From positions 33,768-97,767 of the IMG/VR virus record IMGVR_UViG_3300045988_011313: 64,000 bases of DNA; one strand, 5' to 3'. Below, in pieces: positions 3,278 to 51,915 of the stretch (positions are counted from its first letter, which is position 1; each line of letters starts with the position of its first letter). The stretch comes from a virus. Both the position numbers and the translations under genes were made by a program. A model generated the notes under the pieces. It searched no databases, had not been told where the DNA came from, and worked only from the letters and a program-made list of their open reading frames with translations.

Positions 3278-3351
3278 AGCCTCCTGAAGGATTTGAACCC
3301 TCTCTTCCTGTTTACAAGACAGGCTTGCTAAACCATTAACACTAAGGAGGC
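3278..3351 (-). tRNA. tRNA-Thr: tRNA-Thr(TGT)
   Basis: Acceptor GCCTCCT/AGGAGGC, anticodon arm CCTGT-CTTGTAA-ACAGG, T loop TTCAAAT. Confidence 0.85.
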
Positions 3352-9302: not shown

Positions 9303-9903
9303 AGGAAACTCTATTTACATCTCTTCCTGACAAGAGGATTAGAGAGGTAAGTAGAGTGTTTAGGAGTTCAGTGCATTGAGTAAGTAGGATAGGATAATAG
9401 AGTGTGGAATACACTTTATGTCCTATCTTCCTTGTTTTGTATTGAATGTAACTTGTTGATTTATTGAGAGTTAATAGTATGGATTGACATATTGTCAGAT
9501 GTGTGACATTATATCACTACCTCACAATTATTACCTCATTACAATCAGCAACAAAGAACAATCATCCAATAATGTATGACTGTTTTTACTGTTACAGTGA
9601 TAATACAAAACTACACTCCAACAAACAAACAATTGAACAAACACATATTAATTGTTGTTAAAATGTCTTCAATTAGTACCAATAATATTGAGAGGTGCTA
9701 CTGAAATTGGGTGCAGATGTGAAGAATAGTACGCTATTACAGGACTGTGGTGAGAGTGATATTAATTACTCAATAAACTTAGTGATGATAAAAAGGACAG
9801 AATCAACATAAAATTGCACAGAGAGTAAGAAGGTTTAGAAACTAAATATATTAGGTCAGAATTAAGACATATAAAAGGCAACAACTAATATTATATGATT
9901 TAG

Positions 9904-12242: not shown

Positions 12243-12358
12243 AACATTAAATTGTATGATTATGGAGATTCCAGAAATTCCAGAAATTTGGTATAGTTAG
12301 GAGAACCAAAGCATTTAATAGAGGCTCATGGTTGTTATTACACACAAAGTGGGTTTTA

Positions 12359-12407
12359 GATTGGACGGATGATTTAAGAGATTTCTGTAATAATTATTCG
12401 TCCAATC
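12359..12407. repeat. 9-bp perfect inverted repeat with a 31-nt spacer
   Basis: GATTGGACG (12359-12367) and CGTCCAATC (12399-12407). Located in the non-coding stretch that opens the CpG-rich islet. Confidence 0.6.
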
Positions 12408-12438
12408 ATTATACTTACAATATTTATTTAATAGAGCA

Positions 12439-12585
12439 ATGAATGTAGATAAAGCAAAGAGAAACATCAGAAAAGTATATAAAGATATTCAGACAGAATC
12501 TGCTTATGGTAGCACGGTTAGTGTTAGCAAGATGAATGAATGGGCAGAAATACTTGATGATGCCATTGCATTCTTAGGAGACTGA
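12439..12585 (+). CDS. hypothetical small protein (48 aa)
   Basis: Hand translation gives MNVDKAKRNIRKVYKDIQTESAYGSTVSVSKMNEWAEILDDAIAFLGD*. The next ORF starts 3 nt later. Below the ORF-track cutoff. Confidence 0.45.
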   Translation: MNVDKAKRNIRKVYKDIQTESAYGSTVSVSKMNEWAEILDDAIAFLGD

Positions 12586-12588
12586 CTT

Positions 12589-12759
12589 ATGAATAAAATG
12601 TATCAGATAGACCAAGACCTCAAAGACAAGCTAGTCAAGTACTTCTCAACCATCGAGGAAATGGCAGATGAACTGACTACTGGTAATGTGGCTCACAAGA
12701 AAACAGCCATCAAGGGGTTTGCTGGTAGAGCAAAGGAATATCTAATTAAGCATACATAA
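12589..12759 (+). CDS. hypothetical small protein (56 aa)
   Basis: Hand translation gives MNKMYQIDQDLKDKLVKYFSTIEEMADELTTGNVAHKKTAIKGFAGRAKEYLIKHT*. 1-nt gap to the next ORF. Confidence 0.45.
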   Translation: MNKMYQIDQDLKDKLVKYFSTIEEMADELTTGNVAHKKTAIKGFAGRAKEYLIKHT

Positions 12760-12760
12760 T

Positions 12761-12898
12761 ATGAGTAAATGGATAGGAAAATGGAAGAAATCTCGTCAAC
12801 CCTATGGATGGACTGGAATACTTTATTGGAATAACATCCCAATAACACGTATGTATGAATCTGAATTTGATTTATTAATGAATAAACCAACAAAATGA
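12761..12898 (+). CDS. hypothetical small protein (45 aa)
   Basis: Hand translation gives MSKWIGKWKKSRQPYGWTGILYWNNIPITRMYESEFDLLMNKPTK*. It fits the head-to-tail packing leading to 12905. Confidence 0.4.
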   Translation: MSKWIGKWKKSRQPYGWTGILYWNNIPITRMYESEFDLLMNKPTK

Positions 12899-12904
12899 TT
12901 AACT

Positions 12905-13210
12905 ATGGATAAGAAGAAAGTTGAAGAGCTGATAAAAGAAGCAAAACATTTAGCAATTTTACGCAAATATGAAAATAGACAAGCATATTTGAATAATTGC
13001 ATTCGTTGTTTGAAAGAAGCTTTGGAAGAACTCTCCAAGTCTGACTGGATTTCTGTAGAGGATGAACCTGCACCAAGACTTGAATGGGACGGCTCTTGGA
13101 ATGATATTGTTGTGTGCTACAAAGATAAATGGGTACTTCCTTTATCTTACGTTGTACGCAATGATGTAGAGTTCACACATTGGCGTAGAATCGAAAAGTT
13201 GGAGGAGTAA
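12905..13210 (+). CDS. hypothetical protein (101 aa)
   Basis: ORF track. CpG-containing codons are unlike those in the core genes. Confidence 0.6.
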   Translation: MDKKKVEELIKEAKHLAILRKYENRQAYLNNCIRCLKEALEELSKSDWISVEDEPAPRLEWDGSWNDIVVCYKDKWVLPLSYVVRNDVEFTHWRRIEKLEE

Positions 13211-13212
13211 GT

Positions 13213-13440
13213 ATGAAGGCATTAAAAAGATTAGTATATGTGCTACTTATGTATTCAACATGTATCATAACTCCATTTATAGATATAATATTTATACTTA
13301 TACCAATTAAGTGGATAATAACTGGGAGTGTTTTACGACAGAAAGTAACTAAAGGGAAGAAAACATTCTATGTTTATACCATAACGGAAGTGGCATATTA
13401 TAGTATGGATAAGTATTTAACTAAATTATTAAAGCTATGA
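13213..13440 (+). CDS. hypothetical membrane protein (75 aa)
   Basis: Hydrophobic N-terminal half, LVYVLLMYSTCIITPFIDIIFILIPIKWII. Confidence 0.5.
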   Translation: MKALKRLVYVLLMYSTCIITPFIDIIFILIPIKWIITGSVLRQKVTKGKKTFYVYTITEVAYYSMDKYLTKLLKL

Positions 13441-13823
13441 ATAGAGAACAAGCAAAACAGCTATTGCCTATTATTCAAGCATTTGCAGAAGGTAAAACAA
13501 TACAATATCGTCACGGAGATGTAGATTGGGTAGATGTTGCTCCTTATAGTGTTCTTGATTTTAATGATGATACTTCAAAATATCGTATTAAACCAGAATC
13601 AAAATACCGTCCTTTTGCAAATGCAGAAGAGTGCTGGCAGGAAATGCAAAAACATCAACCATTTGGGTGGTTGAAGATAGATGATTGGTATTGCACAATA
13701 AAAGAAATTAGACCTACATGTACTTTTTGTCATGGTGGTGGGGATGTATTCTATTATGCAGATATGGTAAAGAAAATAAACTTTGCTGATGGCACTCCAT
13801 TTGGTATTAAAGAGGAGGAATAG
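13437..13823 (+). CDS. hypothetical protein (128 aa)
   Basis: ORF track. 4-nt overlap with the upstream gene. Confidence 0.6.
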   Translation: MNREQAKQLLPIIQAFAEGKTIQYRHGDVDWVDVAPYSVLDFNDDTSKYRIKPESKYRPFANAEECWQEMQKHQPFGWLKIDDWYCTIKEIRPTCTFCHGGGDVFYYADMVKKINFADGTPFGIKEEE

Positions 13824-14139
13824 TAGAGAATATTGATATAAAACTTAAAGAGATATAGTTATGGAGCAACGCATTATCAAATTTAAGGCAAAACCAATGT
13901 AAATAACCGTCCTTATAGGACATAATAATAAATAATATGAATAAAAGATTAACAAATCACCTTCTTCTGTAAAAGGGAGAGGGGGATAAAAAAATATACT
14001 TTAATTGGTGGAGCGAGTCGCTCTTTCTGTACAGAGTATGTAATTTCAAGCATAATATAAGATAGCTCTGTTGTTATGTGATGCTATGCAGCATACAGGA
14101 GTTTCTAATATAATTAGAACGTAAGTATCTTATATTTAC

Positions 14140-14213
14140 ACTCTCATAGCTCAGCAGCATAGAGCATTGGTTTCCTAAACCAAGGGTCGAGGGTTGGAGT
14201 CCCTCTGGGAGTA
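14140..14213 (+). tRNA. tRNA-Arg: tRNA-Arg(CCT)
   Basis: ACTCTCA-TA-GCTC-AGCAGCATA-GAGC-A-TTGGT-TTCCTAA-ACCAA-GGGTC-GAGGG-TTGGAGT-CCCTC-TGGGAGT-A. The T loop has G at position 56. Confidence 0.8.
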
Positions 14214-14302
14214 CTAAGGTGTTATTTGTAAAGGTAATTTGATTGTTTTTAGGTATTTATTATAGGAAACTGGTATGTGATATATAGGTTTCCTTTTGTT
14301 AT

Positions 14303-14374
14303 GTCTCCATAGTTCAAGGGATAGAACAATAGTCTTCTAAACTATATATCTGAGTTCGAGTCTCAGTGGAGATA
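14303..14374 (+). tRNA. tRNA-Arg: tRNA-Arg(TCT), second copy
   Basis: GTCTCCA-TA-GTTC-AAGGGATA-GAAC-A-ATAGT-CTTCTAA-ACTAT-ATAT-CTGAG-TTCGAGT-CTCAG-TGGAGAT-A. Confidence 0.85.
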
Positions 14375-14585
14375 CAATGTCTATTTAACTACTATTTCCT
14401 GACCATGCTGTGCAAAATGACTGAAAATGTGGTGCTGATAGGTAAGCTATCACCACTTATAAATGCAACTACTTCAATGTGGGGATATAAAGAGAAAGTT
14501 ACGTGACTTTAATAATGATGTTTCAATAGGAAACAATATTTGACTTTGTTAGGACATTCTTTCAATAAGAAATGAATCCAAATAA

Positions 14586-14968
14586 GGGGCATTTTTTGGT
14601 TTTGATTGCTGATTATTTAGTAAGAGAACATGCAAAGACTGATGGAAAGACATCAAAACAATAACTGGCAATACTTCTTATAGAGTTGCTGCCTAAATAG
14701 GCTGAGTAGCACTTACTTGGAAACAGAAAGGTGCAAAGCCTGAATGAAGACTAAGGCTGAGGGTCCTACTTTAAGAGCATTAATAGGCTGTGGTCTCGCA
14801 GAAGGTAACTCAACTTTTTCCTTGTTTATGGACAATAAAATAAGGTGGTGGAAATGCTGTAAATCCAGACAGACCCAGTGGGTAACTGACCACATTAAAA
14901 AGTAGTAAGCATGTGTAATTCTTTTATTAAAGATTAGTAAGACAGGGGTTCGATTCCCCTATGCTCCA
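14586..14968 (+). ncRNA. ssrA: tmRNA (SsrA), one-piece, about 383 nt
   Basis: The 5' GGGGCAT pairs with the 3' ATGCTCC to give 7 bp, including the G3-U70 wobble. T arm AGGGG-TTCGATT-CCCCT, discriminator A. The internal tag frame at 14667-14696 (GGC AAT ACT TCT TAT AGA GTT GCT GCC TAA) encodes GNTSYRVAA* and is preceded by AACAATAACT. Confidence 0.8.
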
Positions 14969-15002
14969 CAAAATAACTTTAGTATTAACTAAAAAAAAAA
15001 GT

Positions 15003-33316: not shown

Positions 33317-35476
33317 ATGCAAGTAGTAAAAAGAGATGGTAGTATAGAGGAATTTAATGTTGATAAGATTATAAGTGCTGTGGAGAAAGCCTTTAAGTCT
33401 TGCAACAAGGAAATGCCTCAGTATCTGTATGATATGCTTGGTGCTTTGTTTGGCACTTTGGAAGGAGATACTATAGGTATTGAGGAGATACAGAATAAGG
33501 TTGAGGATGTTCTTATGAATGACAAACACTTTGATGTGGCAAAGAGTTATATCATTTATAGAGAGCAACATAAGCAGGCAAGGTTCATTAGGGAAAGAAT
33601 TGATTATATGAATGAGTATAGTCAATCCAATGAGAATGCAGCTACTTCATCAGAGACAGATGCCAATGCAAATGTAACCATGAAGAATGTTGCTAACCTT
33701 GAGGGTGAAGTGTATAAGACTACTAATAGGGTTATTCAGAGGCAAAGGATGAAAGACAAGCTGAATGAAATGTACCCTGAAGTAGCCAAGAAGTATGAAG
33801 AGGATTTGAACTCTCATATCATTTATACACATGATGAAGCAACCACTCCTGTCTTGAAGCAGTATTGTATGGCTGTAAGTCTATATCCCCTTATGATGGA
33901 AGGAGTAGGTAATATTGATGGTATCACTCCAACACCTCCTAATGACTTGCAATCATTCAGTGGTCAAGTAACTAATCTTATCTTCTTGTTATCCTCCCAG
34001 TGTAAGGGTGCAGTGGCAGTAGGTGAATACTTTATTGCCCTTAACTATTACATTGTACAGGAGTTTGGACCTAATTGGTATGAAAAGTTAGATGTAATAA
34101 CTACTACAGACCATTGCAGTAAGCAGAGGACTATCAGAGATGCTATATATAAGGCATTCAAACAGTTTATCTATGGTGTAAATCAGCCTGCTGGTAATAG
34201 GAGCTACCAAAGCCCATTTACAAACATTTCATATTATGACCATACATATTTTGATTCACTGTTTGGGGAGTTCTATTATCCTGATGGTACTAAGCCTCAA
34301 TGGGAAGCAGTAGATTGTCTACAAAGGCTGTTTATGAAGTTCTTCAATAAGTTGAGAACCAAGCAGATTCTTACATTCCCTGTAGAGACAATGGCTATGG
34401 TGTATGACCCTAAGACCAATGATATTATAGATAAGAACTATAAGGACTTTACTGCTGAAATGTATGCAGAAGGTCATAGCTTCTTCACCTATATATCAGA
34501 TAGTGCTGATAGTCTTGCATCATGTTGTAGGTTGAGAAATGAGCTTGCAGAGAATACTTTCAATCCTACATCAGGTCTTACTGGTGTAATGACTGGTAGT
34601 TGTAATGTTATCACTCTTAATATCAATAGGATTGTACAAGATTGTAATAAGGCTTATGGATTGAAGAGGAATGGAGGATGGAAAGAAAATACTTCATTTC
34701 TTAGGGATTACTTGGTAGATATTCTCCAAAGAGTCTATAAGTATCATATTGCATTCAAGACTATGCTCTATGACCTTGAAGATAAGGGGATGTTTGCTGC
34801 TTCAAATGGTGGATATATTCACATAAGCAAGTTATACAGTACCATAGGTATCAATGGCTTGAATGAGGCTGCAAGATTCTTAGGTATGACTGTTGGTAAC
34901 AACAAGGAATATATTGAGTTCCTGCAACTGGTTCTTGGTACTATCAAAGAGCAGAACAAGATACATTCTATTCATAATGCCCATAGACCATTCTTATTCA
35001 ACTCTGAGGTAGTTCCTGCTGAAGGATTGGGAGGAAAGAATTATAGATGGGACTTACAAGATAATTACTGGGTTCCTGAAGATGAAAATCTTTATAACTC
35101 ATATTTCTTTGATGCTCATGATAATACTTCAGTATTAGATAAGATGATTTTGCATGGAAGGCAGACAGCACAATATTGTGATGGAGGCTCAGCTTGTCAT
35201 ATTAATCTTGAAGACCATCTGAGTAAGGAGCAATATCTCAAGCTAATAGACTTTGCTATAGCTAATGGAACCAACTACTTCACATTCAATATTCCTAATA
35301 GTAAGTGTGATGATTGTGGCTACATTACTAAGCATCCTATCACTGAATGTCCAAAGTGTCATAGTAAGAACATCACCCAATATACTAGAGTGATTGGCTA
35401 TCTTAGACCTATTAAGTCATTTGGTAAGGATAGACAAATAGAAGCAAGTAAAAGAATTTATAGTAAAAATATTTAA
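33317..35476 (+). CDS. nrdD: anaerobic (class III) ribonucleoside-triphosphate reductase
   Basis: N-terminal ATP cone VVKRDGSIEEFNVDKIISAVEKA. C-terminal Zn site CDDCG...CPKCH and glycyl-radical loop TRVIGYLRP. Confidence 0.9.
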   Translation: MQVVKRDGSIEEFNVDKIISAVEKAFKSCNKEMPQYLYDMLGALFGTLEGDTIGIEEIQNKVEDVLMNDKHFDVAKSYIIYREQHKQARFIRERIDYMNEYSQSNENAATSSETDANANVTMKNVANLEGEVYKTTNRVIQRQRMKDKLNEMYPEVAKKYEEDLNSHIIYTHDEATTPVLKQYCMAVSLYPLMMEGVGNIDGITPTPPNDLQSFSGQVTNLIFLLSSQCKGAVAVGEYFIALNYYIVQEFGPNWYEKLDVITTTDHCSKQRTIRDAIYKAFKQFIYGVNQPAGNRSYQSPFTNISYYDHTYFDSLFGEFYYPDGTKPQWEAVDCLQRLFMKFFNKLRTKQILTFPVETMAMVYDPKTNDIIDKNYKDFTAEMYAEGHSFFTYISDSADSLASCCRLRNELAENTFNPTSGLTGVMTGSCNVITLNINRIVQDCNKAYGLKRNGGWKENTSFLRDYLVDILQRVYKYHIAFKTMLYDLEDKGMFAASNGGYIHISKLYSTIGINGLNEAARFLGMTVGNNKEYIEFLQLVLGTIKEQNKIHSIHNAHRPFLFNSEVVPAEGLGGKNYRWDLQDNYWVPEDENLYNSYFFDAHDNTSVLDKMILHGRQTAQYCDGGSACHINLEDHLSKEQYLKLIDFAIANGTNYFTFNIPNSKCDDCGYITKHPITECPKCHSKNITQYTRVIGYLRPIKSFGKDRQIEASKRIYSKNI

Positions 35477-41378: not shown

Positions 41379-41837
41379 ATGGCTAAAATAATTTTATGTA
41401 GAGGTATTCAAGGTAGTGGTAAAACTACATGGGCTAAACAATGGGTACTTGAAGACCCAGAACATAGAGTAAGATTTAACAATGATGACATCAGAAATAT
41501 GTTAGGTAAATATTGGGTTCCCAGCAGAGAGGATTTAGTAAAAAGCTTGAGAAGTGCTTTCTTGTTAAATTCTATGTCCTATGGTTTTGATATTGTTATT
41601 GACAATATGAATCTCAATCCCAAGGAATTGGAGTACTATAATAGAGTGCTTGATGGTTGGAATAATCCAAAGTGGGCAATGCCTGATGTAGTAAGACCAA
41701 AGTACAGCCTTGAATTTAAGGACTTCTTTATACCTCTTCAAGAGTGTATAGATAGAGATTCTAAGAGACCTAATCCAATAGGAGAAGAGGTCATAAGGAA
41801 GACTTATGAGAAGTATAAAGACATTCTGAAAGTATAG
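41379..41837 (+). CDS. polynucleotide 5'-kinase-like P-loop kinase (T4 Pnk kinase-domain type)
   Basis: IILCRGIQGSGKTTWAKQW, FNNDDIRNM, IDNMNLNPKE and RDSKRPNPIGEEVIRKTYEKY parallel T4 Pnk (GCPGSGKSTWA, NRDDYR, DTNLNP, RNSKRG...V...MY). Confidence 0.7.
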   Translation: MAKIILCRGIQGSGKTTWAKQWVLEDPEHRVRFNNDDIRNMLGKYWVPSREDLVKSLRSAFLLNSMSYGFDIVIDNMNLNPKELEYYNRVLDGWNNPKWAMPDVVRPKYSLEFKDFFIPLQECIDRDSKRPNPIGEEVIRKTYEKYKDILKV

Positions 41838-44565: not shown

Positions 44566-47500
44566 ATGAGTTGTTTAATTATAACACCAGAAATTAGAGA
44601 ATTAGCTAAGAAGTTTCCTAATGAAACAGAGCAATCAGTACTTAACTTGGTTGGACTGTGGCAGGAAAAGAATAATAAGTCTATTGAGGATATTCCATTA
44701 GGTAGTGAACTCAATGACTTTATCAAGGAGCTGAGAAGTAGTGAGGCTACTGAACAGCTTGATGAGGCACTTAGCAGTTCTTTTGATACTCCAAGGGTTA
44801 CTTCTGTTGAGGAACAACAAAAAGTGGACCTACTCTTTGACCCAAAAACAAGAAGAGATAGAGTGACACTTATTGCAAGATTCTTCAGTAATGAAGTTGA
44901 TGATGCCTTGCAAGAAATGACTGATTCTCTGAAGGGAAGAATTGATGATGCCAGTGGTGTAGAGAAGGAAGAATTACAGGCTGAGCTTAATAGCTTGGAT
45001 AGATTCTCTGCTATAAAGAAGTACACCCCTGCTGGTATATTCAAGAGAGTAGCTAATATCTTCAATTCTTATGTACAAGATACAGAAGAAGGTAGAATAC
45101 AGCAAGAACTTAATGCAATCAACTCTATGAGAGGTGCAGACAAGTTCTCTGATGAGCAGAAATTAGAAGCTGCCAAGAAGAAAGCCGCTTATAAGAATCA
45201 GGAGTATAAGAAGATAGTTGATGACCCCAGTGTTTATAAAGCTCTTGCTGAGGAAGCAAGTACTTTACTTGTAATGACTGAGGGTATTAGAATAGACCCC
45301 AACTATATTGCACCTGCTGATGTAAACCTCAATGATGATGACCCTGATGGTAACAGTGAGGTAGATAATGAAGCAGAGGATTGGAGACAAGAGGAGGCTT
45401 ATAAGGATGGATGGATGACTAATTTCAGACAGGTAAGTTCACATGAGTCTCTGTCACAAGCTGTAAGAAAAGTAATCAGACAGGTACCTAAACTTGACTA
45501 TAGAGGTAAGTATGAAAAGGATGATTTAGGTTTCACAAGATACCTTGATGCTGACTATGTTCATGCTACTTTCATTGACAAGTTAAGGAACATGATTAAC
45601 TCTGATGATATGCTTCCTTTGATGCAGGATTTGCAGAGAATTAAGCCTTGGGTTAAGCAAGTAACTAAGTTACTTCAAGGTAATGAGACTTTATTCTCTC
45701 AGTTCTATCAAGACTTCAGAAAGGATTTTATGCCTTACTGGATTCAAAAGAAGAAGATGATGCCTGATGGTACTTTCAAGATGGAAACTATTGCCATCAA
45801 TAAGCCTGAAGGTGTGTATTATCTCCTTGATGCTTGGAGAGATAACTATGAGAATGGAGTACAACTTGATGATGATAGTGTATATGAGAAGAACGGGGAA
45901 ATAAACAAGGATAATGCAGCTAAAGGTTTACAATGGACTGAGACATTAAATAATATGTTCCAGAACCTTGATACAGAATCCAGACTTCAACTCTTGGAGA
46001 GAGAAGATGTATGGAATACCATAATGAAGTTACTTCATATGTTAGGTATTGATGCCAATCCTTCTGTACTAAAGACTGCATTAACTGATATAAAGACAGT
46101 TCCAGGTATCACATTTACTGACCCAATCATGCTTCTTTTACCACAATTGAATATTATATTCAGTGGTATTAAGAAGGGAGAAATCAAGTCTGAGACTAAG
46201 GAGGATGGTGCTGAGAAGAGAGGAGACCTTATCAATACTTTTGGCTCTGCTTACAATATGATTGCAAGTATGATGGCAGAAGTTACTGAAGATGCTATTG
46301 AAAGTAGTGTCAGAGAGAATGACAAGTCTTACTACTCTCATGTTACTCCTAACTACTTAGGTAAACTTATTAAGAATCTCAAGAATGCTATGAATGACAA
46401 GGAGAGATTTGAACAGTTTATGCAGACCGAGTTCAAAGACTATGAGTGGTTCTTTAAGGATGGTCATTGGAGAAATGACTGGCTAAGACAGCTTGCAGAG
46501 TCTGATGAATTGAGAAGAGGTCTTAACCATAAAGTAGTACTGAACTCTGATAAGGTAGACTATACTAATTGGGATGATTTGGATTATACTTTGGCTCTTC
46601 TTACAGAATACTGGGGAGACCCTGATTCTGCAAAGTCAAGTATAAAGTATGCTTGGTACCATGTTCCTATTCTTTCAGATAGCCCTTCTGCTGAGTTTAT
46701 CAGATTCAGAAAGTACACAACAGGTGATGTGCTTGATGAGGATGGTAAGAAGAGAACCTATGATGATGTTATCCTTGACAAGTTAGTAGACTTGGTTAAT
46801 CAAGAGTATGACAGAATCATGCTGGTTAGGGAAAGAGATGAGGCTTATCAGAGAGGAGATAAGGGTGTAGAGCCTATTGCCAATTATGATATTGTCAGAA
46901 AGGAAAATGGTAGTATAAAAAGTATGGGAGGTGCAGAATTTAAGTTCCTTCCTGCACTTAACAACCTCAGATATGACAATGGAGAGACATTCATTGATAG
47001 GTTAAGCAGACTCAAATCCAAAGGTACTGGAGCTGAACTCAGAAACTTTCTAAGAACTACTCTTAATGACATGATGGAAGATGGTTTTGAACAGACCTAC
47101 AGAGATTGGATGAGGGTAGGACTTTTGGATGAGCTTCCTAATGGCAAGTACAAGTATCTTCCTTTTGAAGGTCAGTCCAAGCAGAATGCAATAACTGCAA
47201 AGGCACTCATTAAGGCTAAGGATGCTTTAGGTTCATTATGGAATACCAATATGGAACTAATGCTTAGAGCCTACAACAACAATAGTGCTTTTGATAGCAG
47301 AGAGGCTAATAGCCTAATGGAGCAAATCAAAGCATTACTTACAGATAAGGCAACAAGAGGTGAGATGGAGTTGAAAGATGCTCAGTCAATCTCAAGAAGT
47401 CTGTTTGTTAAGAACAATACTAAGGATGCACTTAGGGAATACTATTGGAACAGTAAGTTAGCTACTTCACAAATTATCCAGCTTACTACTACAGACCTTG

Positions 47501-50500
47501 CTTTCTATAAGAATCTTGAGGACTTTCAGAAGAGATATAAGGAGGTTCATGCTCCTGCTCTTAGATTGAATACTAAGGCTACTTATAAAGGTGAGAGAAT
47601 TGGTAGGGACTGGGAAAGAACTATCTACTTGAAGGATGATGAGATAATATCCTCTGTACTTGAAGACATCAAGACTGTACTTGATGAAAGGGTTAGAAGA
47701 AATGAAATGACCAAGATAGACAGAGATAATATCATCAGCAAGTTTAGAAATGTGAATGTAGCAGATGCTCAGGCATATAGAAGTTTGAGTTCCTATAGGG
47801 CAATACTTGGTATGTCAGGTCAGTGGACAGATGATATGGAGCAGGCATATAACAACTTCAAGAATGGAGATTGGAATATCAAAGACTTCAATATCATTTG
47901 GCAGACTAAGAAGCCTTATGTCTATACACAAGTCAATAATAACAGTGGCATTGAAGGTCATACTGGAATTAAGACTCCTGTACAGCATAAGAACTCAGAG
48001 TTCCTATTACTCGCTATGCATGAACTAATTGCTGGTCCTTTAGGAGGGTCAAGCAAATTGAAAGCCATAAATAAGTTTATGGAAGATAATCAGATTGATG
48101 TAGTTCAGTTTGAATCTACTACTAAGGTTGGAAAACAAGGTGTGATAGATTTAAATGATGTTAATACAGAGGCTGATGTAATTCAAAGACTTAAGGATGC
48201 TACAGGTATTGGATTTGGTAATGAGAATCCTAATGTAGTACATAAGGTATCTTATGAAGATTATGGTATTCAGACTGCAACTCCTGAACATGCTATTGAT
48301 GCTGTTCAATTGGTAGGTACTCAGATTAGAAAACTAATTACTGCTGACATCTCTGATGACACAATCATTGAGGTTGATGGTAAGAAGATGACTAAGAAAG
48401 AGTGGCTTGACCTATACAATGCTATCAACACTGAGAACATTCTCCAAGCATTTGCTGATGTAGATGAGATATTCAAAGACCCAAAGAAAGTAGAGGAAAT
48501 CTTACTTGAAGAGATAAGAGGTAATCAAAGATATGGTATGGATATGATGAGGGCTTGTACTCTTGATGAGAACAACAACTTCAATATCCCTCTCTTTGAC
48601 CCTGTGCAATCTCAAAGAGTACAGACACTCCTTAATAGTGTAATCAAGAGTAGAATTACTAAACAGAAGATTAGAGGTGGAGCTTTAATTCAGGTATCTG
48701 ATTATGGCTTGACTGATGAACTTCATGTAGTATTTGAAGGTGAAGGTGCTAACAAGAGGATTAAGTATCTTGAATGTTATATGCCTGCATATAGTAGAGA
48801 GTTCTATGAGCCTCTCATGGACCCAAATACTCACCAGCTTGATGTAACTAAACTTCCTGAGGATTTGAGAAAGTTGATTGGATATAGAGTCCCAACAGAG
48901 GATAAATATTCAATGGCTCCTCTGTATATTAAGGGATTCCTTCCTCAACAGAATGGTTCTGCAATCATGCTTCCTGCTGAGATTACTACTCTATCAGGTT
49001 CTGACTTTGATGTGGATAAGATGTACATCATGTTGCCTGAGTTTAATATTAAGAAACTGTATAATATCAAGGGAGCTTGGGATGATTTCTATCTTAATAA
49101 CCCAGATATTGTGGATGAGATTGATAGAAACTTAGGTGAGGCACTTGCACAATTTATTAAAGAGCAGACTGAAGATTGGGATGAGGCAGCAGGCTTGGAT
49201 GACATAGCTGACCTTACAGAAGAGTTTAATGAATGGTTAAAGAAAGAGGGTATTAAAAGATATAAATTCTCTGAAACTGCACAGAAGAAATTCTCTGAGT
49301 GGTTTAAAACTAATAAGAAGAATTACTTCATTAGGGAGAAGATAGAAAAGATAAAGTATGACTTCAACAAGTCTCCACAGGAGAACAGTCTTAAAGCAAG
49401 AAATAACTTGCTGATAGATATGATGTATGGAGTTTTGACTAATGCAGATACAGCTTCAAAGATTCTTAACCCAGGTGGCTTTGATTATCAGAAGAAGTCT
49501 GCAAGAATAATGACTATTCTCAATGATTCTTATGAGAGTGACTTGGCTCAAGCATTAAAGGATATGGGTATAGAACTTAATAAGACTGTACAGAAAGGTG
49601 GAAAGTCTTATCCCAAGTCTATTGCTTCATATCTATTTGACTTAGACCTTGATACTCTTGATAAGTTGGCAGAGAAAACAAAGGTCAAGATGGACCCATT
49701 ATCACCAAGAACTCAAGTAATGTTACACCAACAGAACATGACTGGTGCTAAGTTGATTGGTATTTATGCCAACCATAATGCAAATCATGCTTTGATGCAA
49801 CATACTCAGTTAGCTTTGGATGAAGAAAATGGCTCATTTATATTGAATGGAAAGAGACTTACATCTTTACATGATATTATGAATGGTGACAAGGAATTTA
49901 TCTCAAAGAATAATGCTGGATTCTTGGCTGCTTCTGTGGATAATGTTAAAGACCCTGTGCTTGCAGCACTTAATCAGAATACTTTCACTGCTGATGCTTC
50001 TATGCTTCTCTCAAGATTAGGTTATAATCCTATTGAGATAGGTCTGTTAATGATGCAGCCTATTGTACAAGAGATTACTCAGACCTATTTCAGAGAGAGT
50101 AGAGAGGGCAAAGGCAAAGATACTATCATAGATGAAGTACTGGATAAGTATAAGGAGAAGGCTGCTATTAATAATGACTTGACTTATGATAACTACAAGA
50201 ATAATAGCTTCTATATTGAAGAGCTTGCAGACAATATAATGCTTGCTAAGGAGGCTGTTACTGACAGGACTCAGACCTCTGATTTCAGAAAAATTGAGTT
50301 CTACCAGAAACAAGTTGCAGTTGGATATTTGTTCAAGAGAATTATGAACTCTGCTGATGCTTTAGGACAGTTAGTACAGGCTACAAGGTCTGATACCCAA
50401 GGAGGAGCTGCTGGTCCAACTATTGCAGATACTGAGTTGAAGATGCAGAAAGTGAAAGACCTGTTAGACCAGATAGAGAATAATAGCAAGTTCCCATTGA

Positions 50501-51915
50501 AGAATGCCAATGTAATACTTGATGGTCTATTATCAGACAATCCTAACACTGGCACTCTAAGAGAAAGACTATTGTCTGCTCCTCTTCCCTTCTTACAGGC
50601 TTTCTATACTCTTGGTTTACAGAAAACAGAAGAAATGTTAGGGTCTTATTTCCCTCAATATACTGAATCATTCAGAGCTGTAATTGATGACCTTAGAGGC
50701 ATGACAAAGACTGGTAAGTTGAATGTAAAGACTATGAATAGTATTTATAATGACTTGCTTGCCTATATCATGTCAAAGAATGGATTCTTTGGTTCTGAAT
50801 TGATTGTAAACCCTAACTCAGAAGTAGGTGATATTATTGTGACTTCCTCTGACAAGAGAAAGGATTTCATCAATAACTTCCCTGAATACTTCAAGAGAGT
50901 GGTTACAGATAATGAGGATATAGCTGACCTTGAATTTATTAAGAGGCTTAAGGTAATTAGGGCAAATGACAATAATCCTGTTAGCACAGTAGTGTTCAAG
51001 AATGTTGGTCAATTAAGTCCTACTTTGAGAGAAAGATATATGAGAGATTGGGCATCTCTATTATATATGAGTAACCCAGAAGCTCAGAAGCTTGCTCTTA
51101 ATCTATTCAGATATAGCTATTATAGAAATGGCTTTGCATTTGGACCTTCAACCTTCATCCATTTGGCACCTGTGGCAGTGAGAAATGCTATCCCAGAGTA
51201 CATAAGTACATTGAGGACTCTCTTATCATCAAGTGATGACTATAGTCAATTTGTAGACCAGTATGTCTATAACCACTTGGATAATAGAAAGTTGGTTCCT
51301 GAAATCCCTGATACAGCCTCTGTCCAGTTCATAGGAGAGGATAATGAAGTTAAGAATGAAGTTACATTTGTAATTGATGATAATGCTACCTTTGGAGATA
51401 AGAAAGTTATCAAGAAAAGGATAGATACTCCTGATGGTCCTGCCTATGACTTCTTTAAGTATATAGGTAAGAGAATCAGAGGAAAATATATTTATTACAA
51501 ACTGGCTTCATTAGGTACTGAACAAACTAATGTTGCAACCTATGAAAGGATTGAACCATTAGGTTTCAGAAACAGCTTCATTGAATATGAGTATGGTAAG
51601 GATGTAGAGGAGATGGAAACTGTAATTGATAAGAATAGGAAAGATTATGACCCTTATGCAGATATATTGTCAAGATTTGACCCTGGAGATGCAGAAGTTG
51701 ATTATGATTCTATGCCTGATTATCTAGATACACCCCAAGAGTACTGGGATTCTATTCCACAAGTAGATACTGATGCTTTCCAACAAGTATATGGTACTCC
51801 TCTTGATACTTCTGCTCCTAAGGCTGATGATATAACAGCTATTCAGCCTAATACAGAGTATAAGGATGAGAATGGTGATAATATTTGTGGTGCTCCAACA
51901 TTATATAGTTTATAA
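44566..51915 (+). CDS. giant virion-packaged RNA polymerase-like protein (crAss-like vRNAP type, 2449 aa)
   Basis: The size and the metal-binding-type motif LSGSDFDVDKMYIM (DxDxD, cf. NADFDGD of multisubunit RNAPs) fit. So does the position after the replication module, as in crAss-like phages. Confidence 0.65.
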   Translation: MSCLIITPEIRELAKKFPNETEQSVLNLVGLWQEKNNKSIEDIPLGSELNDFIKELRSSEATEQLDEALSSSFDTPRVTSVEEQQKVDLLFDPKTRRDRVTLIARFFSNEVDDALQEMTDSLKGRIDDASGVEKEELQAELNSLDRFSAIKKYTPAGIFKRVANIFNSYVQDTEEGRIQQELNAINSMRGADKFSDEQKLEAAKKKAAYKNQEYKKIVDDPSVYKALAEEASTLLVMTEGIRIDPNYIAPADVNLNDDDPDGNSEVDNEAEDWRQEEAYKDGWMTNFRQVSSHESLSQAVRKVIRQVPKLDYRGKYEKDDLGFTRYLDADYVHATFIDKLRNMINSDDMLPLMQDLQRIKPWVKQVTKLLQGNETLFSQFYQDFRKDFMPYWIQKKKMMPDGTFKMETIAINKPEGVYYLLDAWRDNYENGVQLDDDSVYEKNGEINKDNAAKGLQWTETLNNMFQNLDTESRLQLLEREDVWNTIMKLLHMLGIDANPSVLKTALTDIKTVPGITFTDPIMLLLPQLNIIFSGIKKGEIKSETKEDGAEKRGDLINTFGSAYNMIASMMAEVTEDAIESSVRENDKSYYSHVTPNYLGKLIKNLKNAMNDKERFEQFMQTEFKDYEWFFKDGHWRNDWLRQLAESDELRRGLNHKVVLNSDKVDYTNWDDLDYTLALLTEYWGDPDSAKSSIKYAWYHVPILSDSPSAEFIRFRKYTTGDVLDEDGKKRTYDDVILDKLVDLVNQEYDRIMLVRERDEAYQRGDKGVEPIANYDIVRKENGSIKSMGGAEFKFLPALNNLRYDNGETFIDRLSRLKSKGTGAELRNFLRTTLNDMMEDGFEQTYRDWMRVGLLDELPNGKYKYLPFEGQSKQNAITAKALIKAKDALGSLWNTNMELMLRAYNNNSAFDSREANSLMEQIKALLTDKATRGEMELKDAQSISRSLFVKNNTKDALREYYWNSKLATSQIIQLTTTDLAFYKNLEDFQKRYKEVHAPALRLNTKATYKGERIGRDWERTIYLKDDEIISSVLEDIKTVLDERVRRNEMTKIDRDNIISKFRNVNVADAQAYRSLSSYRAILGMSGQWTDDMEQAYNNFKNGDWNIKDFNIIWQTKKPYVYTQVNNNSGIEGHTGIKTPVQHKNSEFLLLAMHELIAGPLGGSSKLKAINKFMEDNQIDVVQFESTTKVGKQGVIDLNDVNTEADVIQRLKDATGIGFGNENPNVVHKVSYEDYGIQTATPEHAIDAVQLVGTQIRKLITADISDDTIIEVDGKKMTKKEWLDLYNAINTENILQAFADVDEIFKDPKKVEEILLEEIRGNQRYGMDMMRACTLDENNNFNIPLFDPVQSQRVQTLLNSVIKSRITKQKIRGGALIQVSDYGLTDELHVVFEGEGANKRIKYLECYMPAYSREFYEPLMDPNTHQLDVTKLPEDLRKLIGYRVPTEDKYSMAPLYIKGFLPQQNGSAIMLPAEITTLSGSDFDVDKMYIMLPEFNIKKLYNIKGAWDDFYLNNPDIVDEIDRNLGEALAQFIKEQTEDWDEAAGLDDIADLTEEFNEWLKKEGIKRYKFSETAQKKFSEWFKTNKKNYFIREKIEKIKYDFNKSPQENSLKARNNLLIDMMYGVLTNADTASKILNPGGFDYQKKSARIMTILNDSYESDLAQALKDMGIELNKTVQKGGKSYPKSIASYLFDLDLDTLDKLAEKTKVKMDPLSPRTQVMLHQQNMTGAKLIGIYANHNANHALMQHTQLALDEENGSFILNGKRLTSLHDIMNGDKEFISKNNAGFLAASVDNVKDPVLAALNQNTFTADASMLLSRLGYNPIEIGLLMMQPIVQEITQTYFRESREGKGKDTIIDEVLDKYKEKAAINNDLTYDNYKNNSFYIEELADNIMLAKEAVTDRTQTSDFRKIEFYQKQVAVGYLFKRIMNSADALGQLVQATRSDTQGGAAGPTIADTELKMQKVKDLLDQIENNSKFPLKNANVILDGLLSDNPNTGTLRERLLSAPLPFLQAFYTLGLQKTEEMLGSYFPQYTESFRAVIDDLRGMTKTGKLNVKTMNSIYNDLLAYIMSKNGFFGSELIVNPNSEVGDIIVTSSDKRKDFINNFPEYFKRVVTDNEDIADLEFIKRLKVIRANDNNPVSTVVFKNVGQLSPTLRERYMRDWASLLYMSNPEAQKLALNLFRYSYYRNGFAFGPSTFIHLAPVAVRNAIPEYISTLRTLLSSSDDYSQFVDQYVYNHLDNRKLVPEIPDTASVQFIGEDNEVKNEVTFVIDDNATFGDKKVIKKRIDTPDGPAYDFFKYIGKRIRGKYIYYKLASLGTEQTNVATYERIEPLGFRNSFIEYEYGKDVEEMETVIDKNRKDYDPYADILSRFDPGDAEVDYDSMPDYLDTPQEYWDSIPQVDTDAFQQVYGTPLDTSAPKADDITAIQPNTEYKDENGDNICGAPTLYSL

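Follow-up and report, generated by a model that had tools for sequence, protein, structure and literature searches.

A predicted one-piece tmRNA with a lineage-specific tag in a crAss-like phage

Why would a phage carry a gene for transfer-messenger RNA (tmRNA), and is the gene that it carries a working one? The question is raised by a locus at positions 14586-14968 of a viral stretch of 64,000 nucleotides (nt), referred to here as the window (IMG/VR record IMGVR_UViG_3300045988_011313, positions 33,768 to 97,767), in which we have analyzed what appears to be a complete tmRNA gene (ssrA). The window is assigned below to the crAss-like phages, which rank among the most abundant human gut viruses and for which the way translation is sustained in Bacteroides is poorly understood. 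We propose that the locus encodes a functional, phage-resident, one-piece tmRNA that would carry out ordinary trans-translation in infected Bacteroidales with the help of host partners, as an accessory gene; judging from sequence and conservation, we give this reading a probability of about 0.8.

Identity and fold of the RNA

An earlier note on this DNA, made from its letters, had proposed a phage-encoded, one-piece tmRNA of about 383 nt, and both detection methods applied here bear the proposal out. ARAGORN predicts a tmRNA at 14586-14969 with the tag GNTSYRVAA*, and the Rfam covariance model RF00023 matches 14586-14971 along its full length (model positions 1-374) with 71.9 bits and an E-value of 5.4e-26. 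Membership of the family was defined as a score above the gathering value of 47 bits across the full model, and the score of the window tmRNA is far beyond chance. The parts of the RNA follow the standard, colinear order and not that of the two-piece (permuted) form; its T loop, UUCGAUU, is contiguous, as it is not in the intron form, and an Rfam scan of the window detected no intron.

The ends of the RNA form a transfer RNA (tRNA)-Ala-like domain, much as the earlier note had read them: GGGGCAT (14586-14592) pairs with ATGCTCC (14961-14967) in an acceptor stem of 7 bp that includes the G3-U70 pair, and the domain is completed by a T arm (AGGGG-TTCGATT-CCCCT, 14944-14960) with a loop of the UUCGA type and by a discriminator A (14968); it contains no anticodon arm. 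The D-loop analogue GG.UUUGA is common to phage and Bacteroidales tmRNAs. The short open reading frame (ORF) described in the same note, GGC AAT ACT TCT TAT AGA GTT GCT GCC TAA, is in place at 14667-14696, preceded by AACAATAACT. It has no start codon, an upstream U-A would set its resume codon, and its stop codon lies within the loop of helix 5. In E. coli the corresponding U85/A86 set the frame, A86 being its main determinant (PMC2481249). The features of the gene are given below in window coordinates, with the basis of each call in brackets.

14586-14968, + strand: complete one-piece tmRNA gene (ssrA), 383 nt to the discriminator A (ARAGORN, Rfam RF00023, sequence)
14586-14592, + strand: 5' strand of the acceptor stem, GGGGCAU, in which G3 pairs with the U at 14965 (G3:U70) (sequence)
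14606-14633, + strand: 5' strand of helix 2, tmRNA 21-48, with its partner at 14909-14940 (pairing across 34 sequences)
14640-14655, + strand: 5-bp hairpin UGAUG-GAAAGA-CAUCA at the position of pseudoknot 1 (PK1), tmRNA 55-59/66-70 (alignment, one compensatory A-U to U-A exchange)
14662-14663, + strand: U-A at -5/-4 before the resume codon, equivalent to E. coli U85/A86 (sequence)
14667-14696, + strand: tag frame with resume codon GGC, tag GNTSYRVAA and stop UAA at 14694-14696 (ARAGORN, clade conservation)
14691-14702, + strand: helix 5 hairpin GCC-UAAAUA-GGC with the stop codon in its loop (three invariant G-C pairs, 34/34)
14709-14734, + strand: stem 1 of the pseudoknot 2 (PK2) equivalent, GCACUU ... 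AAGGUGC, tmRNA 124-129/144-149 (paired in 34/34, with G-C to U-A and U.G to C-G exchanges)
14735-14908, + strand: variable 3' structured domain, equivalent to PK2-PK4 (variation among 13 close relatives)
14909-14940, + strand: 3' strand of helix 2, tmRNA 324-355 (pairing across 34 sequences)
14944-14960, + strand: T arm, AGGGG, UUCGAUU, CCCCU (two stem pairs vary between A-U, U-A and G-C in the relatives)
14961-14968, + strand: 3' strand of the acceptor stem, AUGCUCC, and discriminator A (sequence)

Relatives were collected by scanning an exact 32-nt motif from the 5' part of the tmRNA against IMG/VR contigs. After in-silico splicing of interrupted copies, the distinct full-length sequences number 34 and measure 301-450 nt, a range that arises because the central domain has been replaced or resized between sub-lineages. 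G3:U70 and G4:C69 are found in 34/34. Each of the 27 pairs proposed for helix 2, the long helix that connects the tRNA-like domain with the remainder of the RNA, is likewise a standard pair throughout, with several exchanges between G.U and A-U and one between C-G and U-A. The fold is under selection, as evidenced by compensatory changes in the T stem, helix 2d, the hairpin at the PK1 position, stem 1 of the PK2 equivalent and the 293-308 hairpin. The helix 5 hairpin, its pairs being invariant, has positional support only. An outer stem for helix 5 (102-105/123-126) was considered and rejected; it breaks in nine sequences, and the competing stem 1 of PK2 covaries.

Within the variable 3' domain the candidate helices are, in tmRNA numbering, 173-176/224-227, 203-207/212-216, 235-242/253-260, 178-182/244-248 and 293-296/305-308. 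Pairing is kept across the 13 sequences of the subgroup to which the window belongs, with A-U replaced by G-C at 175:225 and G.U by A-U or G-C at 239:256, and helix 293-296/305-308 displays three compensatory pairs. Helix 178-182/244-248 crosses two others and would, as a tentative assignment, form a pseudoknot; the crossing helices 173-176/224-227 and 178-182/244-248 agree with the few substitutions observed. In short-form relatives a second stem can be seen by eye on the alignment, reading CUUUG/CAAAG or CUUG/CAAG. A UGGA/UCCA pairing proposed for the last pseudoknot proved unsupported. The CUGG/CCAG stem of the short forms is not kept in the window type.

For comparison with the host, nine Bacteroidales tmRNAs were fetched from genomes. 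Aligned to them, the window RNA displays a 15-nt deletion that removes the second stem of PK1. A true PK1 was rejected on inspection of the alignment by eye, which revealed no conserved complement for the loop of the hairpin at this position or for the flanking AAAGAC repeats. The direct repeat AAAGAC itself (14634-14651, tmRNA 49-66) flanks and enters the hairpin, and both of its copies read AGAGAC in cr106-type sequences; as there are two haplotypes only, this pattern could reflect shared descent.

The tag is conserved at the level of the peptide. In all 34 distinct sequences it follows the pattern [G/D]-(N)-T-(S)-Y-[R/K]-[V/A/M]-[A/V]-A (variants GNTSYRVAA, DNTSYRVAA, DNTYRVAA, GNTYRAAA, GNTSYKVAA, GTSYKMAA, GNSYRVVA and GNTSYRAAA), and UA(A/U)(C/A)U precedes the resume codon in every relative. 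Tyr and the terminal Ala are invariant, insertions and deletions comprise whole codons, and substitutions are silent (AAT/AAC, GCT/GCC) or conservative (R/K, V/A/M); in one sequence the stop codon changes from TAA to TGA, with termination kept. Codon-sized insertions and deletions, together with silent and conservative changes, point to selection on the peptide and confirm the frame called by ARAGORN. The clade-wide conservation of the ending Y-[R/K]-x-A-A argues that it is a selected feature and not noise, and the basic residue at -4 is a real, selected difference from host tags. The tag had been described as non-canonical, and relative to host-type GE(N/T)NYALAA its ending does change from Y-A-L-A-A to Y-R-V-A-A. 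The statement in the earlier note that Bacteroidota tags begin with Gly also stands, the nine Bacteroidales tmRNAs encoding GENNYALAA or GETNYALAA.

As far as sequence can tell, the window RNA is a bona fide one-piece tmRNA that has the tRNA-like domain, helix 2 and tag frame of the family, a hairpin at the place of PK1 and candidate helices for PK2-PK4, its expression and charging being predicted. Two ORFs lying wholly within the gene, at 14713-14895 (- strand, 60 amino acids) and 14744-14905 (+ strand, 53 amino acids), are almost certainly spurious. The GenBank record of a relative, Kehishuvirus tikkala, has two 'hypothetical protein' coding sequences annotated over its tmRNA region, which spurious ORFs of this kind probably explain.

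Genome context and relatives

A 24-kb query from the window aligns to bajarodcaudo virus 1 across 77% of its length with 84% identity, and it also matches other Steigviridae (cr85_1, IAS virus, crAss001 and the PhiCrAssBcn isolates, from Bacteroides intestinalis). By these matches the window belongs to a crAss-like phage of the Steigviridae/Asinivirinae type, in keeping with the phage origin proposed in the earlier note, and its host is likely a member of the Bacteroidales. The flanks within the 64 kb are crAss-like, with replication genes, tRNA arrays and a giant ORF at 44566-51915. The gene thus lies within the virus genome and not in flanking host DNA or at a prophage junction, and its locus recurs in viral contigs of 90-100 kb.

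ARAGORN finds 25 tRNA genes in the window, which has a G+C content of 36%. Another tRNA, at 3278-3351 (- strand), is detected by Rfam only (51.9 bits) and reads by eye as tRNA-Thr(UGU) with a weak T stem, bringing the total to 26. Two of these genes form an islet with the tmRNA, and both had been noticed from the sequence beforehand; their anticodons, written as DNA, are CCT and TCT:

14140-14214, + strand: tRNA-Arg(CCU), which opens the conserved RNA islet lying upstream of the tmRNA (ARAGORN, Rfam)
14303-14375, + strand: tRNA-Arg(UCU), which reads AGA, the Arg codon of the tag (ARAGORN, Rfam)

The gene order tRNA-Arg(CCU), tRNA-Arg(UCU), tmRNA is kept in relatives. AGA accounts for about 70% and AGG for about 29% of Arg codons in the window, jointly 98-99%; the share of the two codons in six Bacteroidales loci is 23%. 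The single Arg codon within the tag frame is also AGA.

The reliance on AGA and AGG, and the near absence of CGN Arg codons and of all NCG codons (0.1-1%), are consequences of an extreme depletion of CpG. The window contains 116 CG dinucleotides in 64 kb, an observed/expected ratio of 0.056, as compared with 0.99 for GpC. A 15-kb segment of crAss001 (MH675552, 30000-45000) contains 2 (ratio 0.005), the median ratio of related phage loci is 0.11, and that of Bacteroidota host loci is about 0.93; CpG is nearly absent throughout the phage lineage. The tmRNA gene mirrors this genome-wide value, with 2 CpG in the window copy and 1-5 across the 34 phage tmRNAs, as against 21-27 in Bacteroidales tmRNAs. 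A literature search returned no paper on CpG depletion in crAss-like phages. Immediately upstream of the tRNA-Arg/tmRNA islet, a CpG-richer island at 12300-14100 (25 CG, about 14 per kb versus 1.5 per kb elsewhere) spans small ORFs at 12905-13823 with no assigned function, and may be a recently acquired segment.

Among about ten ORFs on each side of the tmRNA, Pfam and PHROGs revealed nothing linked to translation or proteolysis; the matches obtained were to a PRTase, an SPFH/band-7 protein, a glucosaminidase and a helicase. A scan for sigma-70 promoters and terminators around the tmRNA, with a tool that lacks Bacteroides-type promoters, gave fewer matches than shuffled sequence. Elsewhere in the window, at 41379-41837 (+ strand), lies a small P-loop kinase (Pfam AAA_33, E 8e-10) at a site annotated as 'polynucleotide kinase' in related phages; it may possibly serve RNA repair alongside the tRNA and tmRNA set.

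The tmRNA locus occurs in at least 36 IMG/VR contigs, mostly of 90-100 kb; their number is a lower bound biased toward close relatives because a single exact motif was used. ARAGORN calls a tmRNA in 19 of the 36 loci and Rfam in 11 more; ten loci are full-length forms of about 440-450 nt found by Rfam only, five are split by an intron, one is a 91-nt remnant and one is cut by the end of its contig. The ten longer forms score 53-66 bits with RF00023, and their omission by ARAGORN implies that phage annotation based on this program under-reports the gene. In GenBank the tmRNA region matches cr106_1, cr128_1 and Kehishuvirus tikkala. The orthologue in cr106_1 (MT774378) is 304 nt long, has the tag DNTYRVAA and is annotated as 'transfer-messenger RNA, SsrA'.

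With cr128_1 (MT774392, 3006-4322), the relatives split by an intron number six. The intron site falls in the T loop (GGGTT | CGAATCC), and the insert of 869-871 nt comprises a group I intron core (RF00028, 86 bits) and an antisense ORF of 186 amino acids with PHROG endonuclease/HNH matches, which is frameshifted in two contigs. Its boundaries follow the U(-1)/omega-G rule, and splicing in silico restores a perfect T arm and acceptor stem. The tmRNA is not annotated in the cr128_1 record.

Proposed function and rival explanations

Because all elements of trans-translation are present (alanine identity pair, T arm, D-loop analogue, frame-setting U-A, tag frame and a stop codon in a hairpin loop), we adopted the standard mechanism as a working model (review PMC8012679). 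The gene would be transcribed from the + strand, probably jointly with the two upstream tRNA-Arg genes, and its transcript would be trimmed by host RNase P and 3' processing enzymes. Completion of the CCA end would follow, a step that is needed because the bases after the discriminator A (14968) are CAA, so that the gene encodes ACAA and not ACCA. Host alanyl-tRNA synthetase would then add alanine by way of the invariant G3:U70, and with host SmpB and EF-Tu the RNA would enter ribosomes stalled at the ends of broken mRNAs. The U-A at -5/-4 would put GGC in the A site, GNTSYRVAA would be translated, and termination would take place at the UAA in the helix 5 loop. The ribosome would thereby be recycled, and the truncated protein would end in A-GNTSYRVAA, whose C-terminus, of the type [V/A/M]-A-A, is most likely still a ClpXP-type degron.

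A tblastn search with E. coli SmpB found nothing in the window at E<=10. Against a phage collection the same search returned 68 records, among them Lak megaphages (of Prevotella) and prophage-like records, and none under a crAss-like or Bacteroides-phage name. As no phage SmpB was found, the protein would have to come from the host. The benefit to the phage would consist of extra ribosome-rescue capacity during infection, when stalling would be promoted by mRNA degradation and by AGA/AGG usage. Rare AGA/AGG codons and tRNA scarcity are among the classic triggers of tmRNA tagging in E. coli. From their co-location we infer that the tRNA-Arg and tmRNA genes of the islet constitute a supply-plus-rescue module. 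In B. fragilis undergoing lytic infection, the tmRNA of the host becomes strongly enriched at late times (PMC13139388).

Several observations weigh against a functional phage tmRNA of this kind. In the RNA itself, a plain hairpin replaces PK1, the most important pseudoknot in E. coli, the 3' pseudoknots are weakly supported since close relatives vary little, RF00023 aligns poorly to the central part (mean accuracy 0.53), and no complete CCA end is encoded. A hairpin can reportedly substitute for PK1 in E. coli, so we did not treat the loss of PK1 as excluding the RNA from the tmRNAs. On the functional side, co-location is the sole basis for connecting Arg codon usage with rescue. As regards distribution, bajarodcaudo virus 1, which is the nearest sequenced genome, lacks the gene, as do crAss001 and most of the remaining Crassvirales. 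In the cultured Kehishuvirus tikkala (OQ198717, 3006-3310) the tmRNA body and the tag DNTYRVAA are present and the 3' end has been replaced (…GGGTTCGAGTCCAACCATCCCCACA), which makes a T stem and a G3:U70 acceptor stem impossible, so that the RNA cannot be charged; neither ARAGORN nor Rfam calls this copy, which is probably a pseudogene. Lastly, the contig IMGVR_UViG_3300008272_000065 carries on its minus strand a 91-nt element (Rfam match 9457-9550) that retains just the tRNA-like domain and the beginning of helix 2 and lacks a tag frame; it would be a deletion derivative, or, being found in a single contig, could be an assembly artefact.

Variously absent, truncated, damaged at its 3' end or split by an intron in relatives, the tmRNA gene is, on comparative evidence, accessory and not essential. 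In bajarodcaudo virus 1 (PQ006092, 3950-5353), tRNA-Arg(CCT) and tRNA-Arg(TCT) are retained, and an ORF of 299 amino acids with no family match and one of 58 amino acids replace the tmRNA and the small membrane-protein ORF of the window.

The likeliest alternative, itself improbable, holds that the conserved basic residue alters the fate of tagged proteins, recognition by Clp, Lon, Tsp or an adaptor being weakened or redirected. Rescue products would then be spared, degraded by another route or marked differently from host-tagged ones. Position -4 is R or K in 34/34 distinct sequences, with exchanges between the two residues in two lineages, whereas Bacteroidales hosts have Ala at -4 and Leu at -3, and a charged residue near the C-terminus accompanies altered behavior of the H. 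pylori SsrA tag (PMC2862035). The final three residues (VAA, AAA, MAA or VVA) are nevertheless small, hydrophobic and Ala-ended. ClpX reads the last three residues of the tag in E. coli, and the Caulobacter tag ends in AVAA. Ala-tails are likewise ClpXP degrons (PMC8012679), and the search of the neighboring ORFs on both sides found no phage protease or adaptor gene. With a degron-like VAA/AAA end and a gene placed beside the Arg tRNAs that the phage needs, we favor extra rescue capacity over altered protease recognition as the baseline.

Slightly less likely is a composite proposal in which the RNA is a specialized takeover tool: lacking PK1 and nearly all CpG, it would outcompete host tmRNA for SmpB, attach a re-targeted Y-[R/K]-x-A-A tag and form, together with the AGA/AGG tRNAs, an anti-stalling or counter-defense module. 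Such a module would act against host systems that cut tRNAs or mRNAs.

It is improbable that the RNA acts chiefly as a competitor or decoy, capturing host SmpB and stalled ribosomes from host tmRNA and so blunting a response that depends on trans-translation, with tagging a secondary matter. Host SmpB would indeed have to be shared, no phage SmpB having been found, and the 91-nt form resembles the tRNA-like-domain-only RNA of mycobacteriophage DS6A, an inhibitor of tmRNA in E. coli (PMC4131195, PMC11915505). A pure decoy, however, needs no tag frame, stop codon or U-A, all of which are conserved in every full-length copy, and the 91-nt form comes from one contig and could be a deletion or an artefact of assembly.

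More improbable still is a neutral passenger, captured long ago and persisting without benefit on its way to loss. The patchy distribution of the gene, which relatives may lack altogether or carry with an exchanged 3' end, an internal deletion or an intron that bears a homing endonuclease gene, is what this explanation would predict, but pair changes are compensatory and tag changes conservative across 34 distinct intact copies, and splicing the intron-bearing copies in silico yields a perfect T loop and a perfect acceptor stem. Moreover, keeping the structure while purging nearly all CpG requires sustained purifying selection.

Although prophages and genomic islands commonly integrate at tmRNA genes (PMC4383910, PMC9004378), we give next to no credence to an integration-site relic, whether an attP-like copy of the 3' end of host ssrA or host DNA from imprecise excision, since the gene is of full length and possesses a 5' half and tag of its own, has a 3' end unlike that of the host, is barely alignable to Bacteroidota tmRNAs, and has no integrase among the annotations or Pfam matches of its region.

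Ordinary trans-translation with host partners is the reading that we retain. The locus offers a useful experimental handle in three respects: a tmRNA conserved across the clade lies beside tRNAs for AGA and AGG, nearly the sole Arg codons used; its tag has an invariant basic residue that is absent from host tags; and the RNA is a naturally PK1-less variant. For annotation, the practical consequence is that ARAGORN misses both the forms of about 440-450 nt and those split by an intron.

Comparison with known tmRNAs

Bacteroidales tmRNAs, with examples from Bacteroides sp. GD17, Parabacteroides and Segatella copri, resemble the window RNA in being of one piece (394-400 nt), in having a Gly resume codon (GGC) after UA(A/U)CU, and in encoding a 9-residue tag with Tyr at -5 and a terminal Ala-Ala. 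These shared characters point to Bacteroidota ancestry. The host RNAs differ in that they have a true PK1 (GUGC...GAUUU...GCAC...AAAUC) where the phage RNA has a hairpin, in a helix 2 that is about 12 nt shorter than that of the phage, which is rich in A-U and G.U pairs, and in tags that end in YALAA and not YRVAA. Phage and Bacteroidota tmRNAs are barely alignable. Recent capture from the host was rejected on a comparison by blastn-short and nhmmer with 120 Bacteroidota tmRNA loci, which gave marginal matches only (best nhmmer E 4e-4). High divergence, loss of PK1 and scarcity of CpG jointly identify it as a gene long resident in the phage, and not as contamination, recent capture or an attachment-site relic.

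The closest known counterpart is the tmRNA of cr106_1 (MT774378 / NC_055871, Mahstovirus faecalis), an orthologue that is about 91% identical over the aligned ends. It shares the tRNA-like domain, helix 2, the hairpin at the PK1 position, UAACU and a tag ending in YRVAA, and it too lies just after tRNA-Arg(CCU). It is 304 nt long versus 383 nt, with a central 3' domain about 80 nt shorter, its resume codon is GAC (Asp) in place of GGC (Gly), and it encodes a tag with one residue fewer.

The intron-split relatives correspond to an intron form of tmRNA reported only from Bacteroidia, in which the gene is interrupted at the T-loop subsite TT|CGA, termed 'position 3' (PMC11915505); the window gene, in contrast, is uninterrupted. 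The introns of the relatives, with their 869-871 nt and antisense HNH-type ORF, depart from the published ones, which measure at most 700 bp and contain LAGLIDADG homing endonuclease genes (PMC11915505).

That tmRNAs occur in some large phages, as the earlier note stated, is well documented: published examples come from mycobacteriophages and Bacillus phage G (PMC4131195) and from huge phages (PMC7162821), and a survey found tmRNAs in 402 of 18,146 phage genomes, or about 2.3% (PMC9004378). Like the mycobacteriophage Bxz1 group, phage G, the huge phages and Melnitz, the window phage combines a complete ssrA with a tRNA-rich genome; these lytic phages usually lack smpB, and the role proposed for their tmRNAs is to maintain translation (PMC4131195, PMC7162821, PMC9004378). 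It differs from them in its order, Crassvirales, in the phylum of its host and in a genome of only about 100 kb. Melnitz, a pelagiphage/OM43 phage, has a two-piece permuted tmRNA with a riboswitch, unlike the window, and huge phages such as Lak encode SmpB, which was not found in the window phage. Our literature search, which included the supplements of the 2025 tmRNA database paper, found no discussion of crAss-like tmRNAs. Since both phage tmRNAs and the role presumed for them were established earlier, the gene does not represent a new class of biology; the cr106_1 orthologue is already annotated in GenBank. What appears, from the sequences compared here, to be specific to this lineage is the combination of a Y-[R/K]-x-A-A tag, a missing PK1, scarcity of CpG and linkage to tRNA-Arg genes.

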